64,000 nucleotides of DNA from Promethearchaeota archaeon (GCA_048940445.1 JBHLON010000002.1:96001-160000); one strand, 5' to 3'. Shown: positions 52,567 to 62,041, counted from the stretch's first letter. The notes: a model not told the origin generated them from the sequence alone. Program-made: numbers and translations.

Positions 52567-54510
52567 ATGGAAAAATCTGATAATCAAAGAATTGGATACT
52601 ATGCTTGTCAGTGAGGTATAAATATTCGTGGAAAAATTGATTGCAATAAGTTAGTGGAGTACGCTAAAGATTTAGATGGAGTTATCGTTGCTAAACAGCA
52701 CAGTTTTCTTTGCACTGAGAGTGGTCAAAATGAAATTATTGGGGATATAAAAGAAAAAAAATTAAATCGCATTGTAGTTTCTGCTTGAACTCCACGTACT
52801 CATGAACCAGTTTATAGAGGATCGATTGCAAAGACAGATTTAAATCCTTATTACTTTCAGATGGTAAATGTGCGTGAACATTGCTCTTGGTGTACAGAAA
52901 GTAATGAAGAGGCATTAGATAAAGCTAAAATCTTGGTAAAGAGTGGTATCGAACGAGGAAAACTACTTGAAGTTGTACCCATTAGAACTGTGCCTGTAGA
53001 AAAAGCCACCCTGGTGGTGGGTGGAGGAATAGCAGGGATGAATGCGGCTCTGGATCTCGCCAATCAAGGAATTAAAGTGTATTTGGTTGATAAAAACACA
53101 ACTATAGGAGGACGAATGGCGCAATTAGACAGAACATTTCCAACTGATGACTGTGCGATATGAATCTGTGGACCTAAGATGCTTGAAGTAAATCGAAATG
53201 AAAATATTGAGATTCTTAGCTATTCAGAAGTGAAAAAAGTAGAAGGTTATGTTGGTAATTATGAAATAACTGTTGAAAAGAAACCTCGTTATATAAATCC
53301 AGAAACTTGTAACGGATGTGGGGCTTGCGCAGAAGTATGTCCTACTTATACCAATAATTACTTTGATGAATATCTAGGAGCAAGAAAAACAATTGATATT
53401 GCTTTTGGTCAAGCAGTCCCTTTTTTATATGATATTCATAGGGAGACTTGTGTAGAATGCTTTAATTGTGTCGATGCATGTGAGCTTGATGCAATAGATT
53501 TCAGCCAAATACCAGAAGAAGTCAAATTTAAAGTTGGAACTATTATCATTGCTACTGGTTGGGATATATACGAGCCATTCGGAGAATATGGCTATGGAGA
53601 ATATGCTAATGTGATCACACAATCTCAACTCGAAAGAATGCTAGCTCCAAATGGACCATTAGAAGGACACGTCCAGAGAATTTCTGATAATAAAAAACTA
53701 AAGGAGATAGTTTTCATTCAATGCGTCGGAAGTCGAGAAACCGAAAGAACCTACTGTAGTGGTGTGTGTTGTATGCTTGCTTTAAAAAATGGAAAATTAC
53801 TTAAAGAAGAATTTCCTGATGCTAATATTACTATCTGCTATATTGATATAAGAACTAATGAGAAAGGTTTTGAAGAATATTACCAACGAGCTAAGGATTC
53901 TGATATTCGAATGATTCGTGGTAAAGTTGGTGAGATTACAGAAGATCCTGAGACTAAAAATGTTAAAATACGCGTTTATTCATCATTAACAGATGAAATA
54001 ATTAATATTGATGCAGATTTAGTAGTTTTATCAACAGCAGCATTACCATCTAAAGGGACTCAACAAATTGCCAAAGTTTTAAACTTAGATGTTGATAAGA
54101 ATGGATTTCTGACCGAATCCCACTTTGGTTTGATGCCACAAGAAACAAAAACTAAAGGTATTTTTATAGCTGGATTTGCCCAAGGACCTAAAGACATTGC
54201 TTATTCAGTTTCACAAGCTAGAGCTGCTGCAAGTAAGGTTGCAGAACTGACTTCTACCGGTGAAATTGACTTAGAGTTAATTATAGCCGAGGTAGATAAA
54301 GATTCCTGTATTTCTTGTAGAAGATGCGAAAAAGAATGTCCAAAAGGTGCAATAAAGATCGTAGAAGATGAGGGTGCAATTGTTGATGAAATAAATTGTG
54401 ATGGTTGCGGTATATGCGCTACTTGTTGCCCTACACGAGCAATTGATATACGATATTATAGGGATCATCAGTTATATGCTGAAATTGAAGCTCTATTAGG
54501 AGGTGTTTAA
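52567..54510 (+). CDS. hdrA: Heterodisulfide reductase subunit A, selenoprotein with 3 Sec (647 aa)
   Basis: One frame from ATG 52567 to TAA 54510 with TGA at 52612, 52786, 53161, each at a conserved Cys: ACQUG (ICHCG), SAUTPRTHE (ASCTPRTHE), DCAIUI (DCSLCI) in the paralog at 58958. Confidence 0.93.
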
Positions 54511-54514
54511 ATAA

Positions 54515-54958
54515 ATGGACACAAATTTCAATATATTGATGTTTGCTTGTTTAAAATGAGGTTATGGTGCTGCAGATTTAGCAGGAGTGTCTCGATTAAA
54601 ATATACACCGTCTGTTAAAATAGTAAAAATTAGGTGTACTGGACGGATTGATGTGAAACATATCTTATATGCGATTAAGTCTGGAGCTGATGGTGTAATG
54701 ATAGTTGGATGACGACCAGATGAATGTCAATTTAAGTACGGTAATTTTAAAGCACAAACTCATGTTGATTTGGCCAACAGAATATTAGAACGTAGAGGAT
54801 TTGGAAACCAGAGAATAAATCAATATTGGTTAAGTAGCGCTGAATCAGAAAAATTAGTTAAAAGTGTTGAAGATGCAGTAGAAAAGGTACAACGTATGGG
54901 TAAAAACCCAATCCACGATATAAAATCTAAAAAAAAGAAAGCAAGCATTGCCTCTTAG
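54515..54958 (+). CDS. mvhD: MvhD/VhuD [2Fe-2S] subunit, selenoprotein with 2 Sec (147 aa)
   Basis: MDTNFNILMFACLKUGYGAADLAG...RCTGRID...GADGVMIVGURPDEC; TGA at 54557 and 54710 align to CNWC and GCHIGDC cysteines of paralog 62055. Confidence 0.93.
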
Positions 54959-54998
54959 AATGACTCTTATAAATAAATCTTCGTTATAAGATGACTAA
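54955..54998 (+). promoter_or_regulatory. Eukaryote-like SECIS element
   Basis: UUAG-A-AUGAC-UCUUAUAA-[AUAAAUCUUCG]-UUAUAAGA-UGA-CUAA: AUGA/GA core, perfect 8-bp upper stem, AAA in loop. Confidence 0.85.
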
Positions 54999-55063
54999 CC
55001 ATGTGTTGGTAAAGGAGGTATTAATAAAATTAAATTATTAAAAACTAAAATAATTGTAAAAGT

Positions 55064-56569
55064 ATGGTTCAGGTAGTGAATGAGAAATCATTCAGTGGAA
55101 TTTCTCCAAAGAATTTAATGGAAGCAACTTATAAAGCATCTGAAAATTTCCAAATTAGAGCCTTTTATGAATCTAAAGAAGAAATCTTAAAGGCATCTAA
55201 ATACTCAGAAAATGAATTTTATGAGATATACGATGCTATGCTAGATGCGGAGACGGAAAGAAAAATAGTATTAGAGGGGCTTAGAGGTAATAAACCTTTA
55301 TTTTTAGAAGAAATAGTGAAAATTGTAACCGAATTTCCAGCAAATAATGTTATTCGAGATATAATCTATTTAAAAGAGCAAGGATATATTGAGGAACAAA
55401 TTGAAGTTAAAACTAAAGTAGTTATAAAAAAAATAAAAGGAGTAGAAAAAGAGGTAGAAGAAAAAGAATACTTTTATAGGTATCAAGTAAGAAAAGTACC
55501 TGATAAGTTCGTTGAAAATTATTTTGAACCTGTTTCAATAGTATTCGAATCAGAAGTATGTTGTCAATGTGGTTGGTGTAGTAGCATTTGTCCCGTAAAT
55601 GCAATAAACGTGACAGCAGATCTACTTGAAATTGATGAAGAAAAATGCATGAAATGTGGTTTATGTTTTTCAGTCTGTCCTCGGACTTTTTCAATTGATC
55701 AAGTTTATAAAACAATCAAACAATTAGATAAAAATCTTAAGTGGTCAGCTAAAATCGGAGCTTATGTCAATGCCTATTCAGGAGCAACAACTAAAGAACA
55801 AATAAAAAAAGTAAAACAAGATGGAGGTGTCGTCACTTCACTATTAGAGTATCTGTTAGAGAACAATTTAGTAGATGCAATAATTGCTGTCAAACATTCT
55901 AAGGATTTATGGAGACCAGAACCAATAATAGTTGAAAAAGTTAGTGATCTTTATAAAACGGGTGGTACTAAGTATGCTAATGCTGCTACATTATCAATTA
56001 TTCAGATGGCTAAAAATTATGAAAGAATAGCAGTGGTGGGAGTTCCTTGTATGATGAAAGCAATTGAAAAAGGCACTCTTTTTCCAAGTGGATTGCCATT
56101 CTTTAAAAATATTAAATTTAGAATTGGATTATTTTGCATGGAATCCTTTCCCTATGATGGAGTAGTGCAACTAACGAAAGAAAAATTTGATAAGGATATT
56201 AACCAATTAACTAAAATGAATATTGATAGTGGGAAATTTATTATTAATTTGAATTCTGGAGAAGAGTTAAAGGTAGATTTGAAAGAAGTCAAATCATATG
56301 CTCGCAATAATTGTCATTATTGTGAAGATTTAACCTCTGATTATGCTGATATTTCGGTTGGCTCCATAGGTTCTCAAGGAGGTTGGTCTTCTGTAATTAC
56401 ACGTTCTAAGCAAGGAGATCAAATTTATCAAGGTGCAATAAGAGCTGGTTTAATAGAATCTCAAAGTTTAAAGGATGTTAAACCAGGCTTAGGTCTTTTG
56501 GAGCGAATTGCGGGAAGTAAAAGGAAAAATTGTAAGGTAATTGAACTTAAAAAGGAAAAAATATTATGA
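55064..56569 (+). CDS. FrhB/FdhB family protein with N-terminal extension
   Basis: CCQCGWCSSICP, CMKCGLCFSVCP, QDGGVVT, VGVPC, GLFCM, ADISVGSIG. Confidence 0.9.
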   Translation: MVQVVNEKSFSGISPKNLMEATYKASENFQIRAFYESKEEILKASKYSENEFYEIYDAMLDAETERKIVLEGLRGNKPLFLEEIVKIVTEFPANNVIRDIIYLKEQGYIEEQIEVKTKVVIKKIKGVEKEVEEKEYFYRYQVRKVPDKFVENYFEPVSIVFESEVCCQCGWCSSICPVNAINVTADLLEIDEEKCMKCGLCFSVCPRTFSIDQVYKTIKQLDKNLKWSAKIGAYVNAYSGATTKEQIKKVKQDGGVVTSLLEYLLENNLVDAIIAVKHSKDLWRPEPIIVEKVSDLYKTGGTKYANAATLSIIQMAKNYERIAVVGVPCMMKAIEKGTLFPSGLPFFKNIKFRIGLFCMESFPYDGVVQLTKEKFDKDINQLTKMNIDSGKFIINLNSGEELKVDLKEVKSYARNNCHYCEDLTSDYADISVGSIGSQGGWSSVITRSKQGDQIYQGAIRAGLIESQSLKDVKPGLGLLERIAGSKRKNCKVIELKKEKIL

Positions 56570-57678
56570 GTTCAAAAACATTCGAGGACTTGATTAAAGA
56601 AGTTCATGAAAAGGGTATCTGTCAAGAATGTGGAGGTTGTGTGTCATTCTGCTCATCAGCAGAATATAACGTCATAGGCTTATTGGATCCCTATAAACCT
56701 CCAAAATACATTAATAAAGATAAGTGCCTTGAATGTGGAATCTGTTATTATATTTGTCCTCAAACACATATACTAGATAGTGATTTAAATAACATATACA
56801 ATTTTTCAGATTTCTCTTCAACTCCTATTGGATACTATGAAGATATATATTCTTGTCAAGCTACAGATCCGGAGTTTTTAAAGTTTGGAACAGATGGAGG
56901 GGTTGTTAACTCAATTATAAATTTCTTGATTGAAAAAAAAATGATAAATGGTGCCATAGTCTCGAAAACTGATGCTCCATTTTCCAGAGAGGCAACATTT
57001 GCAGATAGCAAATATGATTTATTAAAAGCTTCAGGTGCAAAATTAGATGTAACCCCACAATTAAATGAAATACAAAAGTTTTGCACATATACTCACTCGA
57101 TCCCTAAATTAAATCATTATAAATTTAAGAAATTAGCGATAGTTGGCACTCCATGTCAAATTTATACCATAAGATGTATGCAAGATTTAGGAGTCACTCC
57201 TTCAGAAAACATTGAAATTTGTCTTGGTTTATTTTGCTATGAAAACTTTTTTTTTGAGAAATTTCAAATTGAGAAGTTTGAAAAAGATTTTAATATAAAA
57301 TTTAATGATATTGTGAAGATAAATATTAAGGAAGATGTAATTTTTAAAATAAAAAGTGAGGGCCCTTCAGAGAAAATCGTCCATATTCCTTTTAATCATT
57401 TGAATGACTATATGCGTCCAGCATGTAATGCCTGTAATGATTTTACTAATATCTATGCGGATATATCATTTGGAGGATTAGGGTCTCCGGATAAATATAC
57501 TACTGTAATAACACGAACAAAAAGAGGAAAAGAGATTTTTTCAAAAATCATCGATGAAGGAATAATTTTAAGCAAAGAAATGGATCCTCCAAAAAAAAAG
57601 AAAATGTTAGATTTAATAATTGAATATTCAAAATCTAAAGTATTACGTAAAGAGAGATTTATGCAGAAATTAAATTAA
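56566..57678 (+). CDS. FrhB/FdhB family protein
   Basis: CQECGGC, CLECGIC, DGGVV, VGTPCQ, GLFC, ADISFGG. Confidence 0.9.
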   Translation: MSSKTFEDLIKEVHEKGICQECGGCVSFCSSAEYNVIGLLDPYKPPKYINKDKCLECGICYYICPQTHILDSDLNNIYNFSDFSSTPIGYYEDIYSCQATDPEFLKFGTDGGVVNSIINFLIEKKMINGAIVSKTDAPFSREATFADSKYDLLKASGAKLDVTPQLNEIQKFCTYTHSIPKLNHYKFKKLAIVGTPCQIYTIRCMQDLGVTPSENIEICLGLFCYENFFFEKFQIEKFEKDFNIKFNDIVKINIKEDVIFKIKSEGPSEKIVHIPFNHLNDYMRPACNACNDFTNIYADISFGGLGSPDKYTTVITRTKRGKEIFSKIIDEGIILSKEMDPPKKKKMLDLIIEYSKSKVLRKERFMQKLN

Positions 57679-58957: not shown

Positions 58958-61900
58958 ATGGAAGGATCTGTCTTAGTAATAGGTGGGGGTATCGCAGGAA
59001 TTCAAACCTCATTAGATTTAACGGAATTGGGATTTAAAGTTTACTTAGTGGAAAGAAATCCTTCAATCGGAGGTCGTATGGCTCAACTTGATAAAACTTT
59101 TCCTACAAATGATTGTAGTCTTTGTATCTTAGCACCAAAGATGGTAGAAGTCTTTAGAAATCCAAACATAGAACTTATGACATATCATGAAGTATTAAAT
59201 GTATCTGGAACAGTCGGAGACTTTAAAGTTAAGATTCTGAAAAAGCCAAGATATATAGATGAAACCAAATGTAAGGGTTGTGGCGATTGTTCTCAGCGTT
59301 GTCCGAAGATTGAAGTCCCGAATTTATTCGATATGAAATTAGGTAAAAGGAAATCTATATACATCCCTTTTCCACAAGCTGTACCTCCTATATATTTAAT
59401 TGATCCTGAAATCTGTCTTAAATTAACTAAAGGAGTTTGTGGTGTATGTGAGAAAGTATGTAAAGCTGAAGCAATCGATTATGAACAACAGCCTCGGGAA
59501 TTTGAGATTAAAGTAGGAGCAATTGTAGTTGCTACGGGATTTGATATGCCAGCAGAACAAATAACCTCCCGGTGGGGGTATCAATATAAAAATGTTATTA
59601 GTGCTTTAGAATATGAAAGAATATTATGTGCTTCAGGTCCATTTGGTGGTCATATATTACGGCCAAGTGATGAAACTGAGCCTGAGAGGATTGCTTTCAT
59701 ACAATGTGCTGGTTCACGAGATTTACATGAAAATATTCCTTACTGTTCAAGCGTTTGTTGTATGTACACCGCAAAGGAAGCTATTATCACCAAAGAACAT
59801 TCAGAAAAAGCTAAATGTTTTGTGTTTAGGCACGATATAAGAGCTTATGGTAAGAATTTCTATGAATTCACCCAGAGGGCACAAGATGAATATGGTGTAC
59901 AATATTTTCAGACCAAAGTTAGTAAAGTCGAAGAAGATCCTAGCAATAATGATTTAATCATTCACTATGAAGATTTAAAAACGGGAAAATTTAATAATTT
60001 CAGGAGCAATTTAGTAGTATTAGCAACACCATTAGTTCCATCAAAGGGTACAATTGAAATGGGAAAAATTTTAGGTGTTAAACTAGATAAATATAACTTC
60101 TTTAAGGAAAGCTCATATTTTAATAAATCACTCTCATCTAAAGAGGGAATATTTTTAAGCGGTTTTTGTCAGGGACCAATGGATATTCCAGAAACTGTGG
60201 CAGATGCAAGTGGAGTAGCATCTCAAATTGCTTCACTATTAAATTCTGTTAAATTTAAAGCCATAAGGGAAAAAGTTAGAGAGAAATCTGAGATCGAGGT
60301 TAAAATTTCTGATGAACCTCGAATTGGGGTTCTAATATGTCATTGTGGAATAAATATTGGTAAATATATTGATGTTTCCGGTGTTGTTGAATATGTGAAA
60401 ACATTACCGTTTGTAGCTCACTGTGAGTCTAATCTATACTCTTGTTCAAGTGATTCTCAAGCAAGAATTAAAGAAATGATTGAAGAATATAACTTAAATA
60501 GGTTTATTGTTGCTTCCTGTACACCCCGAACTCATGAAGCTCTATTCCAAGAAACTTGTCAAGAAGCAGGTTTGAATAAATATTTATTCGAAATGGTAAA
60601 CATTCGAGATCAATGTTCTTGGGTTCATATGAATGAATATGAATTTGCTACTGAAAAAGCTAAAGATTTAATTAGAATGGCCATTGCAAAAGCACGTTTA
60701 TTAAAACCTCTTAACGAAGCGCGATTAGATATAACTCCAACAGCCTTAATAATTGGTGCTGGAGTTTCTGGTATGACTGCGGCTTTAAATATTTCTAAAC
60801 AGGGATTTAAAGTTTTTTTAGTAGAGAAAGAAAAGAAGTTAGGCGGAATTTTAAATAACTTAAATATTTTATATCCTGTTCATGAGGATGCATCAACGTT
60901 TTTAGATGCTATAAGTAGGGATGTAAAGAGCAGCAAAAATATTGAACTATTTTTAGACTCCCAAATTAAAAGTATCAAAGGTTATATTGGTAATTATGAT
61001 GTTTCAATCATCGATTCAAAACAGAAAGTCCATGAATTAAAGATTGGAACGATTATCGTGGCAACTGGTGCCCAAGAATTAAAACCAAATGGGATTTTTC
61101 AATATAGCGAGAAAAATGAAAACGTAATAACTCAACTTGAATTAGAAGAAAAGTTGAAAAGTAAAGATTCATCATGGTTAGATGAAATTGAAAGAGTAAC
61201 AGTTATTTTATGTGTAAACGCAAGACAAAAAGAAGGAATCACTTATTGTTCTAACATTTGTTGTGGGGTAAGTATTAAAAATCTAAGTCTATTAAAAGAA
61301 TTAAAACCTGAGATTGAGATTGTTGTTCTTTATAGAGATCTACAAATGGCTAAAAAAGAATTTGAAGAATATTATCGTGAGCGTAGGAAGAACGCGATAT
61401 TTCTTAGATATAGTTTAGAACGGTTGCCAAAAATCGATAAAATAAGTAATAAACCAGAAAAATACAAAATAAGTTTATTTGATACTAATTTGCAAGAGGA
61501 TCTTAGTTTTGATACAGATTTAGTCATACTAGCAACTCCTATGATTCCCAATAACAACCTAACAGAATTGGCGAAAATGCTCAAGGTGCCTTTAGATAAA
61601 AATGGATTTTTTTTAGAAGCACATGTAAAACTTCGACCTTTAGATTTTGCTACTGACGGAATATTTTTAAGTGGCTGTGCTCAATGGCCGAAAAATGTGC
61701 AAGATTCAATTGCTCAAGCAAATGGTGCTGCAGGAAGGGCTAGTAGATTTTTAAGTGCAAAAACAATAACAACTTCTGGTTTAATAGCTGAAGTAAACCC
61801 AGACAGATGCATAGGATGTGGAAAATGTGAATCTGTTTGTCCATATAACGCGATTGAGATTAAAGAAGCACTTATGGAGTTTGAGGAAGTCAGCATAAAA

Positions 61901-62041
61901 GTAGCAAAATCGTTTATAAATTCAGCTTTATGTAAAGGATGTGGTACATGTGCGGCTACTTGCCCTAATGGTGCTATCTCAGTTAAACATTATGATTTTG
62001 ATCAAATTTATGCAATGATCGAATCTTATCTACTAGAATAA
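58958..62041 (+). CDS. hdrA: Large Cys-type HdrA with two FAD-binding modules
   Basis: GGGIAG, MAQLDKTFPTNDC, YCSSVCC, internal ICHCG / ASCTPRTHE / NIRDQCSW, second GAGVSG, C-terminal ferredoxin. Confidence 0.93.
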   Translation: MEGSVLVIGGGIAGIQTSLDLTELGFKVYLVERNPSIGGRMAQLDKTFPTNDCSLCILAPKMVEVFRNPNIELMTYHEVLNVSGTVGDFKVKILKKPRYIDETKCKGCGDCSQRCPKIEVPNLFDMKLGKRKSIYIPFPQAVPPIYLIDPEICLKLTKGVCGVCEKVCKAEAIDYEQQPREFEIKVGAIVVATGFDMPAEQITSRWGYQYKNVISALEYERILCASGPFGGHILRPSDETEPERIAFIQCAGSRDLHENIPYCSSVCCMYTAKEAIITKEHSEKAKCFVFRHDIRAYGKNFYEFTQRAQDEYGVQYFQTKVSKVEEDPSNNDLIIHYEDLKTGKFNNFRSNLVVLATPLVPSKGTIEMGKILGVKLDKYNFFKESSYFNKSLSSKEGIFLSGFCQGPMDIPETVADASGVASQIASLLNSVKFKAIREKVREKSEIEVKISDEPRIGVLICHCGINIGKYIDVSGVVEYVKTLPFVAHCESNLYSCSSDSQARIKEMIEEYNLNRFIVASCTPRTHEALFQETCQEAGLNKYLFEMVNIRDQCSWVHMNEYEFATEKAKDLIRMAIAKARLLKPLNEARLDITPTALIIGAGVSGMTAALNISKQGFKVFLVEKEKKLGGILNNLNILYPVHEDASTFLDAISRDVKSSKNIELFLDSQIKSIKGYIGNYDVSIIDSKQKVHELKIGTIIVATGAQELKPNGIFQYSEKNENVITQLELEEKLKSKDSSWLDEIERVTVILCVNARQKEGITYCSNICCGVSIKNLSLLKELKPEIEIVVLYRDLQMAKKEFEEYYRERRKNAIFLRYSLERLPKIDKISNKPEKYKISLFDTNLQEDLSFDTDLVILATPMIPNNNLTELAKMLKVPLDKNGFFLEAHVKLRPLDFATDGIFLSGCAQWPKNVQDSIAQANGAAGRASRFLSAKTITTSGLIAEVNPDRCIGCGKCESVCPYNAIEIKEALMEFEEVSIKVAKSFINSALCKGCGTCAATCPNGAISVKHYDFDQIYAMIESYLLE

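Follow-up and report, generated by a model that had tools for sequence, protein, structure and literature searches.

The analyzed stretch of DNA (hereinafter, the window) is 64,000 nt long and comes from the genome of a Promethearchaeota archaeon. The hdrA gene, which encodes an HdrA-type FAD/Fe-S flavoprotein, occupies positions 52567–54510 of the plus strand and has 647 codons and a TAA stop. With TGA read as selenocysteine (Sec, U), the frame stays open up to the TAA without frameshifts; codons 16, 74 and 199 are its sole internal stops, all of them TGA. Codons 16 (52612–52614, motif C14-Q-U16-G) and 74 (52786–52788, motif S-A-U74-T-P) fall on invariant cysteine positions of the N-terminal domain, and codon 199 (53161–53163, motif C196-A-I-U199) is the canonical Sec site of HdrA. 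The strand opposite the gene contains no open frame. In the list of ORFs obtained with translation table 11 the gene is represented by three pieces, two ending at 52788 and 53163 and the third spanning 53179–54510. Both parts of the sequence-only reading, that is, three in-frame TGA codons with no frameshift and an HdrA hidden as three broken ORFs, were borne out by these translations, the table 11 ORFs breaking exactly at the TGA codons.

The read-through protein aligns end to end with solved HdrA chains: 9sfi_A (E-value 2.6e-203, residues 7–645) and 5odc_A (E-value 3.7e-197), with 8rvu and 7bkb also matched at full length. U199 aligns to the residue denoted by 'X' (Sec197) in M. maripaludis HdrA 9sfi_A and to Cys197 of M. 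thermolithotrophicus HdrA 5odc_A, and residues 14, 16, 49 and 74 align to the N-domain residues Cys11, Cys13, Cys46 and Cys71 (M. thermolithotrophicus numbering). Pfam identifies the Rossmann/FAD domain and two ferredoxin dicluster (4Fe-4S) regions. The complete set of domains (the N-domain, the TrxR-like FAD domain, the inserted and the C-terminal ferredoxin domains) is collinear with that of solved HdrA proteins. Cysteines are found at positions 14, 49, 196, 248–258, 295–305, 386/397/401/402, 581–591 and 611–621. Together with the TGA codons at 16, 74 and 199 they make up the cluster cysteines of HdrA, namely the four N-domain cysteines, the CxxC pair, four CxxCxxCxxxC motifs and the C..C...CC motif. 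The best NCBIfam models are HdrA2 and HdrA, all of them scoring below the equivalog cut-offs (775 bits vs 1100 for NF040770, 601 vs 1300, and 596 vs 1400), and hence the equivalog level for the methanogen CoB-CoM heterodisulfide reductase HdrA/HdrA2 was not reached. Judging from these sequence comparisons, the product is HdrA in its fold and family, and the NCBIfam scores do not imply a methanogen-type substrate.

The next gene, separated from the hdrA stop codon by 4 nt, encodes a [2Fe-2S] subunit of the vhuD/mvhD type (54515–54958, plus strand, 147 codons, TAG stop; the product matches Pfam FlpD with E-value 1.4e-42). Its Sec codons 15 (54557–54559) and 66 (54710–54712) align to both 'X' residues of the solved M. 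maripaludis VhuD 9sfi_K, and TGA is present at both sites in all 76 orthologous vhuD loci (pattern C*C*C). One nucleotide separates the vhuD stop codon from a plus-strand hairpin at 54960–54994, placed right after the hdrA-vhuD pair, that corresponds to the eukaryote-like, type I lokiSECIS. The AUGA core (54960–54963) is followed by the 9-nt stem arms 54964–54972 and 54984–54992, which form eight pairs and one C.U, by the 11-nt loop AUAAAUCUUCG between them (54973–54983, as read from the sequence) and by GA at 54993–54994. The hairpin possesses all features of the lokiSECIS shape, i.e. AUGA...GA, a 9-bp stem, an 11-nt A-rich loop and a position after the last ORF (Mariotti 2016, PMC4989117).

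In all 75 orthologous loci with enough flanking sequence, the SECIS motif lies 433–481 nt 3' of the hdrA stop codon. In the alignment of 74 copies, 94% of stem cells are paired and eight of the nine pairs feature compensatory changes; this level was reached in none of 500 shuffles, and slid controls yielded 40–57% pairing, the observed pairing being inflated since the loci were picked by a structure-aware scan. Rfam searches of the whole window (gathering thresholds) and of the region 54850–55100 (E-value mode) produced no SECIS family and only a chance snoRNA match, Rfam being a collection without a lokiSECIS model. A loose genome-wide scan for the motif, which is useful only in combination with the position and the A-rich loop, yielded 57 matches vs 25–36 in shuffled sequences, and no other match inside hdrA-vhuD. 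Two further Sec-type hdrA-vhuD pairs exist in the genome (contigs C84 and C100). In each of them HdrA has U16 and U199, vhuD has two Sec codons, and the same SECIS motif is found right after vhuD. Similar hairpins with AUGA, a 9-bp stem, an A-rich 11-nt loop and GA(AA) were also observed at C28:308, C44:27779, C63:16977, C80:6126, C52:1032 and C47:25031; they may mark other selenoprotein genes, e.g. VhuU and PrxL.

Directly behind the SECIS, two FrhB/FdhB-like genes are located on the plus strand (55064–57678), the first of which encodes an N-terminal extension of approximately 150 aa and a ferredoxin domain. They are followed on the same strand by an HdrC/B-like gene with CCG domains, a fused double hdrA, a second mvhD and a response regulator. 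No gene for a hydrogenase large subunit or a formate dehydrogenase catalytic subunit was found near hdrA-vhuD in the window. Elsewhere in the window, the archaeal RNase P RNA is encoded at 2109–2433 on the minus strand (RF00373, 122 bits).

The fused HdrA-HdrA protein (58958–62041, plus strand, 1027 aa) is a Cys-only paralog and served as the comparison partner. Module 1 has no N-domain and retains cysteines at the equivalents of positions 196 and 199; the internal N-domain has cysteines at the equivalents of 14, 16, 49 and 74; in module 2, which follows the internal N-domain, the pair is absent and positions 196 and 199 are occupied by D and T. The earlier observation that the TGA sites are cysteines in the neighboring paralog thus stands for all equivalent positions, but these are split between two modules, the second of which has D/T at 196/199. 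This arrangement fits the complementary heterodimer in one chain described for ANME (Chadwick 2022). Fusions resembling this one are found on contigs C47, C13, C131 and C60. Roughly ten Cys-only HdrA copies are encoded elsewhere in the genome, and an HdrA-like module at C13:12005–13303 contains one in-frame stop in the tblastn match.

Conservation of the TGA codons was assessed in 80 orthologous loci obtained by a scan of species-representative genomes, with protein identity of 77–94% across the whole length. Where the phylum is assigned, these loci belong to Promethearchaeota or other Asgard archaea; the remaining minority carry no label beyond 'uncultured archaeon'. Codon 16 is TGA in all 80 loci covering this position, and codons 74 and 199 are TGA in all 81 sequences, the window included. 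C14 and C196 are cysteines throughout. At position 49, the orthologs divide into 55 with TGA, 17 with TGT and eight with TGC, so that 25 of them have a cysteine codon, as in the window. In most orthologs, three of the four N-domain cysteine positions are therefore Sec. The hdrA stop codon is TAA or TAG, and never TGA, in all 78 loci where the stop lies inside the fetched DNA. Positions 14, 16, 49 and 74 are occupied by Cys or TGA in all N-domain matches in the genome (13 besides the copy in the window) and by Cys in all solved HdrA. In five or six orthologs, the second or third cysteine of a ferredoxin CxxCxxCxxxC motif is replaced by a fifth TGA, at position 301 (L059, L061, L092), 298 (L088) or 614 (L073, L101), which would place Sec at textbook [4Fe-4S] ligand positions.

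In these alignments, in-frame TGA codons coincide with cysteines of homologs and TGA alternates with TGT/TGC among orthologs, a Cys/TGA pattern that is far beyond chance. Lack of TGA conservation had been named in the sequence-only reading as an observation that would disprove Sec, and a UGA/Cys alternation in orthologs as a check; the former is contradicted by TGA at 16, 74 and 199 in every covering locus, and the latter is seen at position 49. The same data bear on the possibility that the three TGA codons are nonsense mutations, either real ones in a pseudogene or artefacts of sequencing or assembly, as suggested by the three fragments under table 11. This possibility is negligible and was rejected because of the conservation of the TGA codons: the same three codons are present in 80 independently assembled genomes at 77–94% identity over the full length and with no other stops, and the genome has the SECIS and complete Sec machinery.

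The host genome is a metagenome-assembled genome of 3.64 Mb in 139 contigs, 93% complete. It encodes SepSecS (482 bits, above the curated cut-off), PSTK (a full-length match to the model, with M. jannaschii PSTK as the nearest solved relative), EFsec (the nearest solved relative being the archaeal SelB 4ac9, E-value 1.8e-85) and SelD, which itself contains Sec, having one in-frame TGA. Neither RF01852 nor ARAGORN called a tRNA-Sec in the unmodified genome. A weak Rfam match (23.6 bits) beside SepSecS could be extended to a 157-nt gene on the minus strand at C61:61702–61858 (L025:1467–1623), which precedes SepSecS by 70 nt. The gene features a 9-bp acceptor stem (GGCCCUUGA/UCAAGGGCC), the G discriminator, encoded CCA, the UCA anticodon and a long variable arm, as well as two insertions, putative introns, of approximately 34 nt in the D-arm and approximately 30 nt in the T-loop. 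After both were removed in silico, ARAGORN called tRNA-SeC(tca), and manual pairing of the spliced D-arm allows for a 7-bp stem and a 4-nt loop, as expected of archaeal tRNA-Sec. Apparently, it is because of the two introns that the standard tools miss this gene. A 31-nt T-loop intron was reported for the tRNA-Sec of Lokiarchaeota, and it was the only intron in that report (Mariotti 2016, PMC4989117). ARAGORN finds only 10–13 tRNA genes in the 3.64 Mb at 93% completeness, which suggests that many tRNAs have non-canonical introns or are unassembled.

Absence of the Sec machinery, the other finding that was to speak against selenocysteine, is refuted by the presence of tRNA-Sec, EFsec, PSTK, SepSecS and SelD in the genome. 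Genome-wide reassignment of TGA, e.g. to Trp or Gly, can be invoked on the basis of the in-frame TGA codons themselves, but it is extremely improbable: the in-frame TGA codons align solely to Cys, and a dedicated UCA tRNA with the tRNA-Sec architecture lies beside SepSecS. It was rejected given that TGA is an ordinary stop in this genome, terminating 227 of 1487 long frames elsewhere. On the strength of the sequence data, the TGA codons in hdrA are almost certainly genuine Sec codons.

The locus closely resembles systems that have been described before. In Lokiarchaeota, HdrA has up to four Sec at five positions, including N-terminal sites; hdrA and vhuD form an obligatory tandem, in which as many as six UGA codons, spread across some 2 kb, depend on one shared lokiSECIS; and hdrA terminates with TAA or TAG (Mariotti 2016, PMC4989117). 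The selenoproteome of Asgard archaea published in 2024 comprises 1439 selenoproteins, with HdrA and FrhD/VhuD as the most abundant families (PMC11227280). Three-Sec HdrA of Asgard archaea is thus already published, in 2016 (PMC4989117) and 2024 (PMC11227280). The earlier statement that Sec in methanogen HdrA and multi-Sec proteins of Lokiarchaeota are known is correct but understated, as multi-Sec HdrA itself was published in 2016. The pair studied here shares with the Lokiarchaeota tandems several Sec in HdrA, one of which is invariably at the canonical site near residue 200, a two-Sec vhuD directly downstream, a single hairpin with AUGA, a 9-bp stem, an 11-nt loop and GA after vhuD, and TAA/TAG at the end of hdrA. 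The genomes also share a tRNA-Sec with the T-loop intron and an EFsec gene located a few kb from tRNA-Sec. The differences, none of them fundamental, are that the apical loop of the SECIS here begins with AUAAA instead of AAAAA and that there is an apparent second tRNA-Sec intron in the D-arm.

With the HdrA-VhuD of methanogens the pair shares approximately 50% identity over the full length, the domain order, Sec at CxxU and both Sec sites of VhuD. In contrast, methanogens have cysteines at all four N-domain positions, whereas the Asgard protein has two Sec, and most orthologs three. Moreover, the SECIS of methanogens is of the archaeal type, the Asgard host is no methanogen, and the NCBIfam equivalog cut-offs are not reached here. 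Another related system is BamE/BamF of class II benzoyl-CoA reductase (BCRII), where an HdrA-like bifurcating subunit is likewise accompanied by an MvhD-like adaptor, Sec19 of which matches U15 of VhuD (bioRxiv 10.64898/2026.04.10.717634), and where the cluster of the N-domain type nears the CxxC pair in one conformational state. BamE/BamF, however, are bacterial and have tungsten-enzyme partners, and Sec in their HdrA-like N-domain is not reported.

Taken as a whole, hdrA-vhuD is very probably a two-gene selenoprotein unit of the Loki-type Asgard kind encoding a bifurcating HdrA. Both genes are presumably transcribed into one mRNA, in which five UGA codons (three in hdrA and two in vhuD; the most distant one lies 2.35 kb 5' of the SECIS) are presumably decoded as selenocysteine. 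The decoding would employ tRNA-Sec and the archaeal EFsec and would be directed by the single lokiSECIS after vhuD. The predicted product is a flavin-based electron-bifurcating HdrA with an N-terminal cluster domain, a TrxR-like FAD domain with CxxU, and two ferredoxin domains.

The AlphaFold model of the N-domain (pLDDT 85.7) superimposes on the N-domain of 5odc_A with TM 0.90. Residues 14, 16, 49 and 74 are located in the model at the C-terminal ends of β-strands 1–3, and in this fold the C-terminal ends of the strands are the usual cofactor edge. According to the structural literature, the N-domain of HdrA carries the [4Fe-4S] cluster HA3 (A3), a 'shuttle' cluster on a mobile arm that receives the low-potential electron. 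For the ligands of HA3 we relied on a secondary account of the crystal structure, in which the cluster is ligated by N-domain cysteines, their number being unstated, and by Cys197 from the TrxR domain of the partner protomer (Chadwick 2022). Cys197 of solved HdrA is the position of U199. In the cryo-EM map of M. maripaludis, a density resembling a selenosulfur bridge is present at Sec197; in that of M. marburgensis, the Cys202/Cys205 pair is accompanied by an unknown ligand; and in BCRII, the distance between the equivalent cluster and the Cys pair falls to about 3.5 Å (bioRxiv 10.64898/2026.04.10.717634).

The adaptor subunit provides a further comparison. In recent structures of MvhD, Cys16 is an additional, redox-active cysteine that resides beside the [2Fe-2S] cluster and is not its ligand. 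In BamF this position is occupied by Sec19, for which a selenenylsulfide intermediate was proposed (bioRxiv 10.64898/2026.04.10.717634). VhuD U15 equals MvhD Cys16, and VhuD U66 equals MvhD Cys67; since the former is a non-ligand, we infer that U66 would be a ligand of the [2Fe-2S] cluster. By eye, the local motifs are alike, A-C-x-U-G in HdrA and A-C-x-x-U-G in VhuD. The hhalign comparison of the HdrA N-domain with VhuD is weak (E-value 0.002, probability 13%) and pairs C49 with C41 and U74 with U66; the BLASTP match is not significant (E-value 2). A Foldseek search with the N-domain model retrieves MvhD chains with E-values of about 1e-2 and TM 0.48, and a wide search with VIA-align retrieved only generic flavodoxin-like folds. 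With homology this weak, the equivalence of the HdrA N-domain and MvhD is a lead, under which HdrA position 16 may correspond to MvhD Cys16 and BamF Sec19.

All Sec residues of HdrA would belong to one functional site, formed by HA3 of the mobile N-domain and by the partner protomer's CxxC/U pair, which would contact or ligate this cluster; the convergence on HA3 is indicated by the fused paralogs, whose modules complement each other, one having the CxxC pair and the other the N-domain. We favor the reading that the N-domain contributes three ligands to HA3. If so, at least one of U16 and U74 ligates HA3, and in four-Sec orthologs at least two Sec are ligands. U74 is probably the likelier ligand of the two, and U16 may be a selenol near the cluster. 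Under this assignment, U74 would be the homologue of VhuD U66; U199 would be the selenol of the redox-active C196/U199 pair, approaching or ligating HA3 of the other protomer; and U16 would either complete the ligand set as its fourth member or, like MvhD Cys16 and BamF Sec19, lie next to the cluster as a selenol that does not bind it. The earlier proposal of ligation of the N-terminal cluster by both U16 and U74 is plausible, both residues belonging to the four invariant cysteine positions of the HA3 domain, but position 16 may match the non-ligand Cys16 of MvhD. We regard the chances as about even that HA3 is coordinated, in one state or another, by two or more Se atoms. Somewhat below that we place a broader proposal, offered tentatively: every Cys-to-Sec change (at 16, 49 and 74 in the N-domain and at 199 in the partner protomer) would target the coordination sphere of one cluster. 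The outcome would be a naturally occurring cubane bound by two to four selenolates, and selection would have acted on its changed potential or on the lability of its ligands.

Alternatively, the Sec residues could take no part in Fe-S ligation and instead form, as redox-active selenols, part of a thiol/selenol relay that links the flavin, CxxU and the clusters by chemistry similar to that of ferredoxin:thioredoxin reductase, the cluster being all-sulfur or bound by other residues. The bridge-like density at Sec197 in M. maripaludis and the ligand held by Cys202/Cys205 in M. marburgensis agree with such a relay, as do the description of MvhD Cys16 as a non-ligand and the selenenylsulfide intermediate proposed for Sec19 of BamF at that very residue (bioRxiv 10.64898/2026.04.10.717634). 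The extra Sec were also considered as extra catalytic residues in 2016, before HdrA structures were available, with all sites but the most C-terminal one held not to be cluster ligands (Mariotti 2016, PMC4989117). For the N-domain sites the latter statement looks doubtful, as it predates the structures. Moreover, the N-domain has only four conserved cysteine positions for one [4Fe-4S] cluster, and with Sec at three of the four in most orthologs, complete ligation could dispense with Se only if non-Cys ligands took part; TGA at canonical CxxCxxCxxxC ligand positions is also seen in some orthologs. Given these observations, we consider the relay unlikely, though clearly less so than the readings dismissed above, and retain ligation of iron–sulfur clusters by Sec as a reasonable hypothesis. 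The accompanying remark that Se-rich coordination is biochemically untested appears correct within the literature searched.

For annotation, the consequence is that gene callers cut hdrA into three pieces, split vhuD and miss the intron-containing tRNA-Sec; as a result, metagenome-assembled genomes of Asgard archaea seem to be devoid of intact HdrA and of Sec decoding. What is added here to the earlier papers is interpretive, namely the doubt about the 2016 statement on the N-terminal sites. In addition, the structures published since 2017 put all lineage-extra Sec residues around one cluster, located where electrons leave the bifurcating flavin, a point that seemingly has not been drawn out in the literature searched. 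If the Sec residues are indeed ligands, these proteins would be a natural test case for the chemistry of selenolate-ligated [4Fe-4S] clusters, and this would bear on the electron path from the flavin via the Cys/Sec pair to the HA3 cluster.
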